Origin: Thermoplasmata archaeon
GTDB lineage: Archaea; Thermoplasmatota; Thermoplasmata; Thermoplasmatales; ARK-15
Assembly: GCA_049967255.1 (NCBI GenBank)
Contig: JBMFTB010000004.1
Coordinates: 1-47,669, forward strand
DNA: 47,669 nucleotides
Direction: 5' to 3'
Translations under genes and position numbers: made by a program
Notes under the pieces: model-generated
The model's database searches: none
Told to the model about the DNA's origin: nothing
What the model saw: the letters and a program-made list of their open reading frames with translations, nothing else
In this document: in pieces, positions 2,461-21,109 of the stretch
Layout: the number at the start of each line of letters is the position of its first letter
Position numbering within the stretch: the stretch's first letter is position 1

Positions 2461-2611
2461 GCTTTAAAGATAATTTTACATTTCTTATTATTTTTTCTTA
2501 TAACCTTTTTACCTACATATAAAATATTTAAAGAGGCTTTTTAAAAATATTATTGCAAGATTTTCAATTCTTTTGAATAAATACATTACTTTCTAAGTTT
2601 CAAAAAAAAAA

Positions 2612-3415
2612 TTAAAGTGATTTTAATTCATTATAAAGCTGGTTGGAAAGAGCCTGCTGAAATTCTTCTTCGAAAATTTTTCCGTAAAGCTCCTCGAATA
2701 CTTTTTCCCTTTCTGTTTTAATTCTTAATACTATATCCATAATTTTTTGGGCTACATTGTAGTTTATTTCTTCAAGTACATCTGAAAATTTCATTTTTCT
2801 GTTTTTTTCCATATGTATGAACTCTGAATTCTTAATTACTGTTGGCTTTTTATTTAATTTTAGTATATCATCAATTTCCTTTCTTGGGCTAATTGACCTG
2901 TTTTCAAAAGAGAATGGCATAACAAGCACTGGAAAAACAGGAATCATAGGATATCTTGAATTGATAAGTTTTAAGGCTTCTTTTATACCACCTGTACCCA
3001 TTCCACCACCTAGGGCAGCAACAAGGATTATTGCATCTGCTTTTCTCAGATTTATGGATATTTTACCTGTTAAAGAACTGAATATTTCCTCGAAATTATC
3101 ATCTATGAGCTTTTCTCCAACCTCTACGAAACCTTCAGTATCCTGATGTGTTCCAAGAACTGAATTCGTAATAAGTATTGTTTTAACAAATGGATATGAT
3201 TCTAGTTCTAATTCCTGCTTTGTATTAATGTAGACCGTTAGTACATTTGAGAAATCTTCTTGGTCTGGGCCATTTTTGTATATGGAAAGCAATCTTTCAA
3301 AAGACTCAAGGAAATGGGCTCCAGCACCTCCAAAAGCAATGACAGGTATATAGGGGGGATCTAGCCAGTCTTTCATCATTCCTTTGAAAATTTTTCCTTT
3401 TTCATCTTCTATCAT
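2612..3415 (-). CDS. Divergent FtsZ/tubulin-superfamily protein, GTPase N-domain only
   Basis: T1 'AFGGAG', 'INT', T4 'ALGGGMGTGG', T5 'PFSFE'. No T7 loop or C-terminal domain. SD AGGTGAT precedes the ATG at 3415. Confidence 0.8.
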   Translation of the reverse strand: MIEDEKGKIFKGMMKDWLDPPYIPVIAFGGAGAHFLESFERLLSIYKNGPDQEDFSNVLTVYINTKQELELESYPFVKTILITNSVLGTHQDTEGFVEVGEKLIDDNFEEIFSSLTGKISINLRKADAIILVAALGGGMGTGGIKEALKLINSRYPMIPVFPVLVMPFSFENRSISPRKEIDDILKLNKKPTVIKNSEFIHMEKNRKMKFSDVLEEINYNVAQKIMDIVLRIKTEREKVFEELYGKIFEEEFQQALSNQLYNELKSL

Positions 3416-3833
3416 ATGTATCACCTTTTTCCCTTTTTATCCTGCTGGTTGCCCTATCCTTCTGATAGTTTTTATAATTGTCTATTAGCTTGTCAATAGA
3501 AGCATAACCCTGCATCATCGTTGACAATTCCTCGCTTATTTTATTAGTCTGGGCTGCCTTTTCGAGAAAGAAATTTATCGCTTCGTCCAGATTTATGAAT
3601 AAATTCTCTTCCACAAGATCGCTGAAAATGTCTTTTATTCTTTTATTCAGTCTTATTGTTACAAGATCTTCGTCTAATTGCTGCCCTTTTTCCATCATTT
3701 CTAGCTGCTTCATAGTAGCGTATCTGATAAAGTCTGATCTTGTTTTAAATTCTGGGTGTCTAACTAGAAAATCATCTATGTTATCCAACTCCACCTGACT
3801 GATTCTCAAAGATATTTTTGTGTCTGTTTTCAT
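3402..3833 (-). CDS. Ribbon-helix-helix (CopG/Arc/MetJ, CdrS-like) regulator with apparent tandem RHH domains
   Basis: 'KISLRIS...IDDFL...FKTRSDFIRYA' plus a second 'LVTIRLNKRIKDIFSDLVEENLFINLDEAI'. GGAGG SD upstream; overlaps the FtsZ-like gene start. Confidence 0.8.
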   Translation of the reverse strand: MKTDTKISLRISQVELDNIDDFLVRHPEFKTRSDFIRYATMKQLEMMEKGQQLDEDLVTIRLNKRIKDIFSDLVEENLFINLDEAINFFLEKAAQTNKISEELSTMMQGYASIDKLIDNYKNYQKDRATSRIKREKGDTYDRR

Positions 3834-4136
3834 TATTTAACATCCTCCTTGGATAGGACCAGTGGTTCGAGTTGAAGTTATGCTTTTTTTAATATATAAA
3901 AATTTCTACTAAAATACCATATTTAAATTATTATTACTCCTTTATTTTTAATACCTTATTTCTTTTAAATTCTTTATATGAAATATTTTGATTATAAAAC
4001 TATGATAAATCATATGTCATACATTGGAATACATAATAAATATTCCAAAAGGAAACAAAGTATTACCTTCGTATTCCATTTGTTCTACTAATGAGAAAAG
4101 GAAAAATTATATGTTACCTTTGCCTTTATGATTTAA

Positions 4137-4222
4137 GCCGGGGTAGCCGAGCTGGCCAAGGCGCAGGCCTGGAGAGCCTGTTCTCCGAAAGGGGAGCGGG
4201 AGTTCAAATCTCCCCCCCGGCG
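4137..4222 (+). tRNA. tRNA-Ser(GGA)
   Basis: Acceptor GCCGGGG/CCCCGGC, anticodon arm CAGGC-CT-GGA-GA-GCCTG, long variable arm, T-arm GGGAG-TTCAAAT-CTCCC. No encoded CCA. Confidence 0.96.
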
Positions 4223-4363
4223 CTTAAATTAGTGAAAAATATTTAAAATTAAAATTGTTTATACCATATTCCAAAGAAACGTTTTTCAATATTATTCTGT
4301 TTTAGTTCTAAAGTTAGATTAATAATAATAGGGATTGTTTAAAATATTTATTAATAATGTAAG

Positions 4364-4438
4364 TGGGCTTGCCCGGATTTGAACCGGAGTCTTCGGCTCC
4401 CGAAGCCGAAAGGATAGACCAATCTACCCCACAAGCCC
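4364..4438 (-). tRNA. tRNA-Pro(CGG)
   Basis: Reverse complement GGGCTTG...TCGGC-TT-CGG-GA-GCCGA...CCGG-TTCAAAT-CCGG-GCAAGCCC-A. Confidence 0.95.
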
Positions 4439-4459: not shown

Positions 4460-6370
4460 TCAAGATAAATTTTCTCTCAGTTCAACAACCATTCCTTTTT
4501 TCAAAGTAAGAGCCTCATCCCTGGAGAAAAATGTCCTGCCAACACCAATTAATTCATCATTTTCATTTACAACCAATGTTTCATCCATCGGTCTCAATTC
4601 CGGATCCATATCAACTATGAACCTGGCAAATACATTTTTACCCTTTCTATTGAATTCTTCACTTTCAGGTGTAACAACAGTCCTGAGCCCAGGGAATTTC
4701 AGGCCATTATGCAAAAGTCTAGCACCCTCTATCTTAAGAGTGAAAAATCCATCATTCCTCATTGAAAGAATATGTTTGCCATTAAGGAAAATATTTCTTA
4801 TCATCCCCGTATTTTTACTCTTTACAATAGTTATTTCTCCATTTAAAAGTACATCTGAGGCACCAAAACCGAACTGATAATCCGCTACAGCTTTTATTCT
4901 CAAAATATCCAGGTTCCTTGTCTCTTGCTCCTGAACAAATTCCTTTTCGCTTGTCAAATTTTCTGGTACATTTTTTAACCATGATATGAGTATATCAAAA
5001 TCAAGCGAATCAACTATTTTTTCAAGATTTTCAATGCAATATGTTTCATTTGGCAATGGTGATTGCACAATTGGATAAATAAAAAGCAATTCATATGGGA
5101 CATAACCGAATGGTGTTTTAACCAGGAAATGTGAATCCAGTGTCTTGATAAACTTCATTGCCCTATCCATGTTTTTCCAGTCAATAACTATGCATGATTT
5201 TCTTTTATACTTATAATTCCTAATTATTCTTTTTTCAAGCGTTGAAACCATGGGTCTTTTTAATGACTCCGCACCTGTATAATAGAATGGGTGTGTCCTG
5301 CTTAGACTTTCAAATTTTTCAAGTTTCTCACCGTATTTATAAAGTTCAAGCAGACCCTGGTAAAGGTATGGATGGGATCTGCACCTTTCTTCAGCATATT
5401 CCCAGATGCTGCCTTCAAAAATTGCACCCTTTACCCTTTCTAATTCTTGAACAGTAACATAAAGGTTGTGCCTTGAAATGATAGAAAATCTTTCATTTTT
5501 ATCCATTTGCTTTATTTCGTCCAGATCATACCTGTCAAGATATGGGCTAGGATATGGCACATATTTTAAATCAGAAAGATATCTTGTACTGTCCGGGAAT
5601 ATTATTCTATCGTCCCTTGCATATTTCACATATGATGATGAATCAAAAAAGTCCATGCCCATTAAAGCGGCAATTGCAAAAATCATTGGATGTCCTGCGC
5701 CAAATAGATGTACTGGTTTACCGTAATCAATGTTCAATTTTGATGGCATTACGATATTAACGATATCCGAATATTTGTAAGATTCAAGTAATGGCACTAC
5801 ACCACCTATCGGGTAATAATCTAGATTTAAGGAGTTCATCAACCTTGCAGATTTTTCCCTTAAATCAGGAAAAAGAGATCCTTGAATGGGTCCTGCAACG
5901 TACGTATCACCCAAGATCTCCCTTGCACACTTAGCCCTTTCATATGTAGCGTTTATTGCATTTTCAGCTTCATTGTAAGAGAATTCGGGTTCGGAGAATA
6001 TGTCAAGTATTGTTGCAATATCAGTTCCCATGTCTTTCTGGAACTTTAAAATCTCAACAGGATCTAAATCAACATCTCCGTAAACGTGGCTTTGAAATGT
6101 TCCAGAATCTGTCATTATAATACCATCAAAGTTCAAGAGTTTATGAAGACCCTCCTTTAATGCCTTTTCCCTTAATAGAGCATCTTTCTTTATGATATAA
6201 GAATTTGTTATCAGTGCATCAATATGGAATTTATTTTTTAATTCATCAGGAGGTATAACAATAATATTTGGGTTTATGACAGGCATGAGTGCAGGTGTTT
6301 CAACCTGCTTACCGTGTACCTCAAACCTGCCTATTCTCGAAAGCCCATCTCTGTGCAAAACCTCAAACAT
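4460..6370 (-). CDS. tgtA: Archaeosine tRNA-guanine(15) transglycosylase with C-terminal PUA domain
   Basis: 'ETPALMPVINP', 'MTDSGTFQ', 'PIGGVVPLLE', 'HLFGAGHP', 'DFFDSSSY', PUA domain at the C-terminus. Confidence 0.95.
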   Translation of the reverse strand: MFEVLHRDGLSRIGRFEVHGKQVETPALMPVINPNIIVIPPDELKNKFHIDALITNSYIIKKDALLREKALKEGLHKLLNFDGIIMTDSGTFQSHVYGDVDLDPVEILKFQKDMGTDIATILDIFSEPEFSYNEAENAINATYERAKCAREILGDTYVAGPIQGSLFPDLREKSARLMNSLNLDYYPIGGVVPLLESYKYSDIVNIVMPSKLNIDYGKPVHLFGAGHPMIFAIAALMGMDFFDSSSYVKYARDDRIIFPDSTRYLSDLKYVPYPSPYLDRYDLDEIKQMDKNERFSIISRHNLYVTVQELERVKGAIFEGSIWEYAEERCRSHPYLYQGLLELYKYGEKLEKFESLSRTHPFYYTGAESLKRPMVSTLEKRIIRNYKYKRKSCIVIDWKNMDRAMKFIKTLDSHFLVKTPFGYVPYELLFIYPIVQSPLPNETYCIENLEKIVDSLDFDILISWLKNVPENLTSEKEFVQEQETRNLDILRIKAVADYQFGFGASDVLLNGEITIVKSKNTGMIRNIFLNGKHILSMRNDGFFTLKIEGARLLHNGLKFPGLRTVVTPESEEFNRKGKNVFARFIVDMDPELRPMDETLVVNENDELIGVGRTFFSRDEALTLKKGMVVELRENLS

Positions 6371-20065: not shown

Positions 20066-21109
20066 TTGGTGGTTATAATGGATGAAAATAATGTTACGCC
20101 AGAAGAACTCGAGCTTATTGAGTTATTGAAATCATTGAAAACGAAGATTAAGATTGTAGGCTGTGGTGGTGCAGGTTCAAACACTATATCAAGGATCATT
20201 GATGAAGGTATTTCGGATGTTGAGCTTATAGCAATGAATACAGATGCACCTCATTTATATATGACAAGGGCACAGAAAAAAGTTCTCTTGGGAAAAAGGT
20301 CAACAAGGGGCCTGGGTGCAGGTGCCCAACCTGAAATAGGCCAGAAAGCTGCACTCGAATCTGAGGAAGATATTAAAAAGGTTTTAGAGGGAAGCGATAT
20401 CGTATTCATTACTGCGGGTCTTGGCGGAGGTACGGGTACAGGTTCAGCAAATGTTGTTGCAAAAATAGCAAAAGAGATAGGGGCTCTTACAGTTGCAATT
20501 GTTACATTACCTTTTAGTTCAGAGGGGAGATTCAGGTTTGATAATGCCATGTGGGGTCTTGAAAAACTTCTAAAGGAAGCTGATACTGTTATTGTTATTT
20601 TGAATGATAAGCTATTAAAGTTAGTGCCCAGATTACCATTAAACAAGGCGTTTAGGGTTGCGGATGAGGTTCTTGTAAGGGCCATAAAGGGTATTTCTGA
20701 AATGATTACAAAACCAGGATTGATTAACCTGGATTACAATGATCTTAAAACAACAATGAAAGAGAGTGGCTTGGCCGTAATTGGATTAGGTGAAAGTGAT
20801 GGTGAAAAAAGAGCTGAAACAGCAACAGAAATGGCAATAAAATCACCGCTCATAGACATTGACATATCAGGTGCAAGGGGTGCACTAATAGATGTAATAG
20901 GCGGCGATGACATGACCGTTGAAGAGGCGCACAGGGTAGTACAGATTGTAGAACAGAACCTTGCAAAGGATGCAAGGATTATATGGGGCGCATCTGTAAG
21001 GCCTGACTTCAAAAGGGAAATGAGCGTAATGGTTGTTTTAACGGGCATAAAAGGGATACCGAAATACGCATTCACGGACCAGGGTATTAAAATTGATATA
21101 GTTAAATGA
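20066..21109 (+). CDS. ftsZ: Cell division protein FtsZ (canonical, FtsZ1 locus)
   Basis: 'GCGGAGSN', 'GLGAGA.P', 'GLGGGTGTG', T7 'INLDYND', C-terminal domain. Conserved ftsZ-secE-spt5 order. Confidence 0.97.
   Translation: MVVIMDENNVTPEELELIELLKSLKTKIKIVGCGGAGSNTISRIIDEGISDVELIAMNTDAPHLYMTRAQKKVLLGKRSTRGLGAGAQPEIGQKAALESEEDIKKVLEGSDIVFITAGLGGGTGTGSANVVAKIAKEIGALTVAIVTLPFSSEGRFRFDNAMWGLEKLLKEADTVIVILNDKLLKLVPRLPLNKAFRVADEVLVRAIKGISEMITKPGLINLDYNDLKTTMKESGLAVIGLGESDGEKRAETATEMAIKSPLIDIDISGARGALIDVIGGDDMTVEEAHRVVQIVEQNLAKDARIIWGASVRPDFKREMSVMVVLTGIKGIPKYAFTDQGIKIDIVK

Follow-up and report, generated by a model that had tools for sequence, protein, structure and literature searches.

A ribbon-helix-helix gene paired with an FtsZ-family protein cut down to its nucleotide-binding domain: a conserved, apparently undescribed variant of the archaeal RHH-FtsZ module in Thermoplasmata

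Why would an archaeon keep an FtsZ-family protein that ends just past helix H7, directly behind a ribbon-helix-helix (RHH) gene? The question is raised by a gene pair at positions 2612-3833 of a 47,669-nucleotide (nt) stretch of DNA from a hot-spring Thermoplasmata archaeon (assembly GCA_049967255.1, contig JBMFTB010000004.1); this whole stretch is called the window below. Both genes lie on the reverse strand, the RHH gene upstream of what we call the half-FtsZ gene:

3402..3833, minus strand: RHH gene, an open reading frame (ORF) of 143 amino acids (aa) with a first RHH unit, a weaker putative second unit, a long C-terminal helix and a basic tail
2612..3415, minus strand: half-FtsZ gene, 267 aa from an ATG at 3415 (270 aa from an alternative GTG at 3424), laid out as an N-terminal helix, a tubulin/FtsZ GTPase domain (T1-T6 and H7) and a long C-terminal helix

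We find that the pair is a real, conserved and apparently undescribed variant of the archaeal RHH-FtsZ module. Translation of the half-FtsZ more likely begins at the ATG at 3415, judging from a GGTGA in front of it and from the closest homologues, which are 267 aa long and begin with MIE.. at the equivalent methionine. From this ATG, the half-FtsZ frame overlaps the RHH gene, up to its stop codon (TGA, 3404-3402), by 14 nt.

The half-FtsZ protein is an FtsZ-family protein cut down to its nucleotide-binding domain. Residues 26-192 match the Pfam family PF00091 with 46.3 bits (E 7.8e-12, cut-off 33), and the protein has no Pfam match to FtsZ_C (PF12327), a domain found in seven other genes of the same genome. 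The FtsZ equivalog model TIGR00065 gives 25.9 bits against a cut-off of 295.2, compared with 412.9 for the canonical ftsZ of the window (20066). More specifically, the sequence contains FGGAGA (T1), a modified T3 HQDTEGFVEVGE, GGGMGTGG (T4), PFSFE..R (T5), the T6 asparagine and an H7-like helix, INYNVAQKIMDIV; the nucleotide-loop residues, including GGGMGTGG, FGGAGA and PFSFE, are all invariant in 11 close homologues. In an alignment to full-length FtsZs the half-FtsZ stops past H7, without T7 loop or C-terminal domain, and its tail (...EEEFQQALSNQLYNELKSL) contains no GID-type SepF-binding motif, a feature of canonical archaeal FtsZ (Pende et al., 2021). The AF2 model, for which a family alignment of 37 sequences was used (predicted local distance difference test, pLDDT, 87; predicted template modelling score, pTM, 0.85) shows an N-terminal helix, a Rossmann-like core and a single long helix over residues 213-269. 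Foldseek places CetZ2 (4b45) at the top of its matches (E 3.5e-11, probability 1.00), followed by many FtsZ structures, with alignments to the CetZ2 and FtsZ structures spanning about 205-250 columns. Pairwise BLASTP between the half-FtsZ and the genome's own FtsZs is insignificant or marginal, and the link is made by profiles only. As read from its sequence, the protein keeps a conserved nucleotide pocket and the 'top' face of the subunit and is missing the 'bottom' face. A preliminary description of this DNA, made from the sequence alone, had named T1, T4, T5 and the H7-like helix and had noted a helical tail in place of the T7 loop and C-domain; both observations are confirmed.

The upstream gene probably encodes a CdrS-like protein with tandem RHH units. 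Its first unit (residues 4-49) matches RHH_8 (20.1 bits) and the CdrS model NF058555 (15.8 bits), both under the curated cut-offs. Among 20 orthologues, the CdrS model is matched by 18, RHH_8 by 13, RHH_1 by 10 and the aCcr1 cell-cycle regulator model by eight, while three give a weak match to the ParR model; the best CdrS-model match has an E of 2.9e-7 and all stay below its 100-bit cut-off. The second unit, at about residues 57-100, is suggested by a RelB/DinJ match under the curated cut-off (residues 57-126, E 0.0011) and by the AF2 model (pLDDT 82.8 but pTM 0.39), which predicts two units of extended segment, helix and helix, followed by a 40-residue helix (helices at 13-25, 32-52, 64-75, 82-95 and 98-137). 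A Foldseek search of this model against the PDB returned nothing at E<=0.001, the top weak rows being RHH proteins (NikR, ParD, Arc), and the RHH alignment, used as a profile to search PDB sequences, had the RHH of HicB3 as its best match (E 0.003). Of the two RHH-like units proposed in the preliminary description, the first is thus solid and the second plausible as modelled. The protein appears from these matches to be a relative of CdrS and not a CdrS equivalog, about double in length and with a second unit. The cdrS-ftsZ2 operon has been described in Halobacteria and other Euryarchaeota (Darnell et al., 2020, PMC7439475; Liao et al., 2021, PMC8406309, each in the part available), and the accessible text of Pende et al. 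(2021, PMC8178401) reports 'ftsZ2 frequently with parD'. The likeness to this arrangement, already drawn in the preliminary description, is supported by these accounts (PMC7439475, PMC8178401) as far as their available text goes.

Both the truncation and its linkage to the RHH gene are conserved under purifying selection across the class, in relatives without a full-length gene at this locus. In the window's genome (G000) and 40 relatives, the RHH gene is present in 40 of 41 genomes, with a short FtsZ-type frame adjoining. The two genes are adjacent by phmmer in 21 of the 29 relatives' loci, which are chromosomal and share conserved neighbours (the window's ORFs at 821-1438, 1453-2460 and 4460-6370 were used by homology across loci). 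In a class sample, the RHH profile matches all 71 genomes, and at least 57 of them have an FtsZ-family frame of no more than 351 aa directly downstream. These 57 comprise 43 genomes found among the best 150 of 206 and the best 150 of 369 matches (open frames of up to 329 aa), the genome G073, and 13 fetched loci (proteins of 253-351 aa). All 11 fetched partner proteins that were scanned have a Tubulin domain only, including a 424-aa protein from G082, which lies outside the 57. Besides G082, the remaining 14 genomes comprise two without a recognisable partner (G021, G024), three ambiguous ones with long open frames or contig ends (G041, G093, G102), and eight outside the matches listed or not looked at.

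A short form of similar length occurs in every family examined, with homologues of 257-267 aa down to 44% identity and a spacing between the two genes that ranges from overlap to about 340 nt. When 1.84 billion representatives were scanned, 36 proteins came up at E<=0.001, mostly of 190-290 aa, and a related-locus search with an 11-sequence alignment returned 12 loci, all from Thermoplasmata, Thermoplasmatota, Aciduliprofundum or Methanobacteriota metagenome-assembled genomes. In 51 genomes of the phylum's other classes no short form was found at E<=1e-25, a threshold that more divergent short forms could have escaped; all hits were at least 338 aa long bar one, a 247-aa frame at a contig end.

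A lead towards viral relatives was dropped. Among the nearest ESM Atlas neighbours of the protein are 229-236-aa clusters named 'Tubulin/FtsZ GTPase domain (fragment)', mostly viral, at a score of 0.91, which shuffled proteins reach 4-10 times in 100; viral contigs scanned with the family alignment contained no relative.

The ratio of nonsynonymous to synonymous substitution (dN/dS) between G009 and G014, the sole pair with unsaturated dS (0.41-0.55), is 0.14 for the half-FtsZ gene and 0.06 for the RHH gene; in other genome pairs, dN of both genes is far under the saturated dS. Independent contigs, from DNA as well as RNA, contain the half-FtsZ frame uninterrupted, and a related strain's DNA contig has an in-frame 3-nt deletion at 2800. 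RNA-library contigs, 95-99% alike, cover 2624-3848 in three hot-spring metatranscriptome runs (three study codes), and one of them, 1043 nt long over 2820-3848, bridges the gene junction. RNA contigs are absent over 2400-2585 and 3888-4250, where the DNA run has cover; the RNA contig ends at 3844-3848 in three RNA runs, two with adapter letters, are at most a weak hint of transcript ends. The short form's conservation across the class and the purifying selection on both genes argue that this is not a recent truncation, and we are highly confident that the pair is a real, ancient and selected operon of FtsZ-family origin.

Did the half-FtsZ replace FtsZ2, as the preliminary description had suggested? 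This part does not hold. The window's genome (1.5 Mb, 96% complete, 193 contigs) contains seven full-length genes with Tubulin and FtsZ_C domains, together with a SepF gene:

window, 20066-21109: two-domain FtsZ
contig C1, 52486-53601: two-domain FtsZ
contig C9, 16168-17205: two-domain FtsZ, 345 aa
contig C11, 542-1708: two-domain FtsZ
contig C15, 7764-8861: two-domain FtsZ
contig C32, 360-1520: two-domain FtsZ
contig C60, 1019-2185: two-domain FtsZ

The ftsZ of the window is followed by Spt5, L11, L1, L10 and L12, a context that by gene order corresponds to the ftsZ1 type in the available text of Pende et al. (2021, PMC8178401). The C9 gene has a 118-aa tandem-RHH gene directly upstream, overlapping the ftsZ start, which by the same kind of evidence is an ftsZ2-type context. 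The RHH gene with a short form and the RHH gene with a full-length form coexist in G019, G026, G008, G072, G092 and many other genomes. Because a full-length FtsZ with its own RHH gene is present in the same genome, the pair studied here is a paralogous second module, and it looks like an old paralogous copy of a cdrS-ftsZ2-type module. BLASTP between the genome's two RHH proteins is insignificant or marginal, and only profiles connect them. Snf7/ESCRT-III was not found in G000 by a search whose control barely detects Snf7 even in Sulfolobus.

A maximum-likelihood tree of 40 GTPase domains (197 columns, LG+G4+F), built without named FtsZ1, FtsZ2 or CetZ references, separates the short-branched canonical FtsZs from the RHH-linked forms, short and long, and two other divergent paralogue types with a bootstrap of 100. 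Other families have more canonical short forms, which score 112-138 bits on PF00091, and a T3 pattern G-T-x-G-D is common to these and to the RHH-linked full-length forms.

Further members of the family were observed in the same genome. The FtsZs on C11, C32 and C60 (386-388 aa) are separated by branch lengths of 0.04-0.08, yet lie in differing gene contexts, and represent either a recent triplication or a strain mixture in the assembly. At the edge of C11, a short distance upstream of its FtsZ gene, a 121-aa ORF (79-444) matches FtsZ_C only (46.6 bits) and is either a contig-cut fragment of another FtsZ gene or a remnant. Another conserved type of paralogue, 260-307 aa long, is represented on C47 (518-1333; L048), where a 127-aa gene at 138-521 overlaps it. 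Proteins of this type carry an SPW(L/F/I)D motif in a short C-terminal region, and T1 and the G-box are degenerate in the C47 copy. The type has relatives in G019 (L072), G072 (L073) and G092 (L070); Pfam matched FtsZ_C in the G072 and G092 copies and the Tubulin domain only in the C47 and G019 copies.

What might control the pair? The 160 nt upstream of it have a mean column identity of 76% across five genomes (the window and four orthologous regions) whose synonymous sites are saturated. This region and the flanks contain the following features:

3834..3990, minus strand: conserved candidate promoter, operator or leader (from sequence and alignment), with the blocks TGGTATTTT, GAAATTTTTATATAT, CATAACTT and CTGGTCCTATCC conserved in the alignment of upstream regions
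3900-3893, minus strand: archaeal TATA-like box TTTATATA, identified by sequence
3848-3844, minus strand: GGAGG, 10 nt before the ATG of the RHH gene
2602..2611, minus strand: run of 10 T directly after the half-FtsZ stop codon
4137-4223, plus strand: tRNA-Ser, further upstream of the pair
4363-4438, minus strand: tRNA-Pro, further upstream of the pair

Oligo-T tracts end transcription in archaea, and the run of 10 T is likely to be such a terminator, closing the two-gene unit. At 3913 and 3950, a direct repeat of 12 nt, AATACC(A/T)TATTT, may be an operator or part of a leader. Upstream of the pair there is no iteron or centromere-like array, only two-copy matches of 9-14 nt in AT-rich DNA. 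A scan for sigma-70 promoters and hairpin terminators gave no more than shuffles and would in any case not be informative in an archaeon. Downstream, the module's border is not fixed: in the DNA contig of a related strain, 41 intergenic nt past the operon (2500-2542) are exchanged for 128 other letters, and in two congeners (G002, G003) an extra 254-aa gene lies between the half-FtsZ gene and the next conserved neighbour. In 20 loci examined, the window among them, the half-FtsZ gene is followed by no convincing ORF for a small hydrophobic protein.

What could a half subunit do? The available part of one account (PMC8936486) describes that each FtsZ subunit contributes its T7 loop to complete the GTPase site of its neighbour, that filaments grow at the T7-exposing end where incoming subunits dock via their GTP-bound top face, and that bottom-face mutants of FtsZ are toxic. 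By analogy, we tentatively suggest that the half-FtsZ is a division-linked modulator of FtsZ assembly, a reading that is close to evenly poised, with the balance slightly against it. In the simplest history, an RHH-ftsZ2 ('cdrS-ftsZ2') pair would have been duplicated early in the class; the T7 loop and the C-terminal domain would then have disappeared from one copy, while the other presumably persists in the same genome as the full-length RHH-linked form. The RHH protein may set the transcription of the pair through the conserved upstream region. The half-FtsZ would bind GTP and meet, with its nucleotide ('top') face, the T7 face of a full-length FtsZ, most likely the FtsZ2-type sister. Devoid of a T7 face of its own, it could not be extended and would end or poison the growing end of the filament, its GTP being hydrolysed only while docked. 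The outcome would be a dose-dependent and GTP-dependent brake on division-ring assembly. End-capping of FtsZ filaments specifically is the more doubtful proposal, although plausible by analogy with the filament polarity published in the accessible text (PMC8936486).

We also considered a wider form of this model, in which the half-FtsZ is a natural 'half subunit', acting as a GTP-loaded cap or as the obligate heterodimer partner of an FtsZ2-type paralogue, at a level set by the CdrS-like regulator. In family f11, described below, the half-FtsZ would then supply the nucleotide face and an RHH-linked paralogue of 282-311 aa the opposing face of a split or hetero-assembled division apparatus. This combination is speculative and quite improbable; if true, division in f11 would be a split or hetero-assembled FtsZ system unlike any described.

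Exceptions within the class offer a way to weigh the modulator. In eight of the 29 relatives' loci (family f7 and one f2 genome), the RHH gene is followed by an ORF of 157-257 aa; the family profile recognises four of these eight (E 5e-14 to 7e-20), and the other four are unrecognisable. The G-box and T1 are degenerate (GNAG, GFGGSF) in three recognised f7 ORFs. An RHH-linked full-length FtsZ was not found in the f7 genomes searched (G021, G024, G027, G030, G033, G036, G039). Decay of the half-FtsZ where the RHH-linked full-length module was not found speaks weakly in favour of a modulator, as one observation from one lineage. Throughout f7 (L013-L017, L020, L021), the RHH gene was observed to be kept where its partner decayed, including in G021 and G024, which are without any tubulin-family gene; the RHH protein thus seems to have a function of its own. 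Family f11 (G087, G094, G101, G065, G073; loci L052, L053, L057, L058; 99% complete) keeps the RHH/half-FtsZ pair, seen as loci in two genomes and as adjacent hits in the other three. Tubulin-family genes in G087 and G094 are limited to the half-FtsZ (235-237 aa) and an RHH-linked protein (282-311 aa) that lacks a canonical T7 motif.

Several results weigh against the half-FtsZ being a modulator derived from the FtsZ2 module. FtsZ_C is undetectable in the five f11 genomes, of which only two have SepF, and since f11 keeps the pair without FtsZ_C, the half-FtsZ cannot serve solely to cap canonical FtsZ. Some f7 genomes keep the fold despite degenerate GTP motifs, so GTP binding cannot be a universal requirement. 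Among PDB entries, the half-FtsZ matches a CetZ best and not an FtsZ. Support inside the RHH-linked cluster of the tree is 32-55, where long-branch attraction is possible, and FtsZ2 orthology comes from synteny alone because the tree has no named references. As for co-expression, the RNA contigs come from related strains 95-99% alike and do not prove a single transcript.

Alternatively, the half-FtsZ may work off filaments, as a nucleotide switch acting on the RHH protein or on its long C-terminal helix and tuning DNA binding, such that the GTP level would be passed on to the transcription of division or other genes. Consistent with a switch, the two genes are adjacent class-wide, with overlapping frames in the window's lineage; the RHH gene outlives its decaying partner, which would make it the core component; the half-FtsZ is kept in f11 without any canonical FtsZ; and long C-terminal helices are confidently predicted on both proteins. 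We nevertheless consider a switch unlikely, as the distance between the genes varies across families, and haloarchaeal CdrS is a transcription factor for which the accounts, in the parts available, report no need for FtsZ2 binding. A recent truncation, pseudogene or assembly artefact of ftsZ2, or a replacement of FtsZ2, is extremely improbable: only the gene length and the divergent sequence (the low TIGR00065 score) suggest it, and it is contradicted by the similar-length short form in every family, by purifying selection and frames intact in independent DNA and RNA contigs, and by the RHH-linked full-length FtsZ that coexists in G000.

In partition systems, the gene of a cytomotive nucleoside triphosphatase usually comes after that of a small DNA-binding adaptor, such as an RHH protein, an order that the present pair shares. 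The pair could accordingly be an autonomous cytoskeletal or DNA-positioning system, similar to TubR/TubZ or to FtsZl1, in which the half-FtsZ assembles non-canonically, for instance via its long C-terminal helix, and the RHH protein is a DNA-bound adaptor for chromosome or nucleoid positioning. The weak ParR-model matches and the persistence of the half-FtsZ in f11 without canonical FtsZ are in keeping with this, as is FtsZl1, for which the available text shows FtsZ-like GTPase domains without a canonical C-domain and suggests novel assembly (PMC2875224). Such a system is distinctly unlikely here, given a chromosomal, vertically conserved locus with conserved neighbours and no iteron or centromere-like array upstream, a protein without a Tubulin_2/TubZ family match by Pfam, an RHH protein whose best family matches are cell-cycle regulators, and viral contigs without relatives; moreover, a protein devoid of a T7 loop is not known to have any way of coupling GTP hydrolysis to polymerisation.

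What is known of FtsZ-based division in archaea comes from a few model species, and its known regulators are few. An FtsZ paralogue that is kept under selection throughout a class, with a GTP pocket and without the polymerising and GTPase-activating half, would represent either a modulator built into the system or a novel role for the tubulin fold. Since it is accompanied by a CdrS-like regulator of its own, the paralogue would extend the cdrS-ftsZ2 paradigm, and it makes a testable prediction on filament-end control in archaea. The phyletic pattern moreover provides natural experiments on the need for a partner, with motifs intact beside an RHH-linked full-length FtsZ, a decayed protein in f7 and a retained one in f11, where FtsZ_C is undetectable. 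Full-text literature searches yielded no account of an RHH gene paired, in Thermoplasmata, with an FtsZ made up of the GTPase domain only, although the supplementary locus tables of Darnell et al. (2020), covering 93 genomes, may list such loci uncommented.

How does the pair compare with known systems? It differs from the TubZ/TubR type III partition systems in having no Tubulin_2 match, no repeat array and no viral relatives, and in its conserved chromosomal synteny. MipZ is reportedly a protein capper of FtsZ filaments. Together with MciZ it would share the effect proposed here, a sub-stoichiometric block of one filament end; these cappers are unrelated small proteins or ParA-like ATPases, whereas the cap proposed here, by analogy, would be half a subunit of the polymer itself. 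Capping by MciZ is mentioned in the available part of the filament account cited above (PMC8936486).

CetZ2 of Haloferax volcanii (4b45) is the best single match to the GTPase domain by sequence (phmmer E 1.1e-7) as well as by structure (template modelling score 0.60 on the query). The CetZ2 chain has 334-349 residues, of which 214 columns are aligned, and the half-FtsZ is without any C-terminal domain. Canonical FtsZ structures score nearly as well (E 1e-10), and the tree, which has no CetZ reference, groups the half-FtsZ with FtsZ-type paralogues of the same genomes. FtsZl1 (Makarova and Koonin, 2010, PMC2875224) resembles the half-FtsZ in that it has an FtsZ-like GTPase domain and does not match canonical FtsZ in the S6-T7 region or the C-terminal domain, and in the available text its authors doubt canonical filament formation. 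Unlike the half-FtsZ, it is about 1000 aa long, with a coiled coil and an alpha-helical C-domain, has vWA, OmpA-family and GTPase gene neighbours and another phyletic spread, and appears in that text without an RHH partner.

The truncated FtsZ paralogues FtsZ1 and FtsZ3 of Agrobacterium (Hyphomicrobiales), as presented in the accessible part of Aubry et al. (2026, PMC13732431), are likewise shortened and anciently retained beside an essential full-length FtsZ. Continuously expressed Agrobacterium FtsZ1 inhibits division, which is a precedent for a regulatory or poisoning role. They differ in being bacterial and of independent origin, and that part of the paper reports no dedicated RHH partner.

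With the cdrS-ftsZ2 operon, the pair shares a small RHH gene directly upstream of an FtsZ-family gene, apparently co-expressed, chromosomal and vertically inherited, and its RHH family is most like CdrS (NF058555 in 18 of 20). It differs in that the RHH protein is doubled, at about 140 aa compared with the 61-position CdrS model, whose cut-off it does not reach; in that the partner is without T7 loop, C-terminal domain and C-terminal tail, whereas the known partner is the full-length ring former FtsZ2; and in that a separate pair of RHH gene and full-length ftsZ exists in the same genome, beside which the one studied here is a second module. The cdrS-ftsZ2 operon is therefore the closest described system, and the truncated FtsZ paralogues of Hyphomicrobiales are the closest functional precedent.

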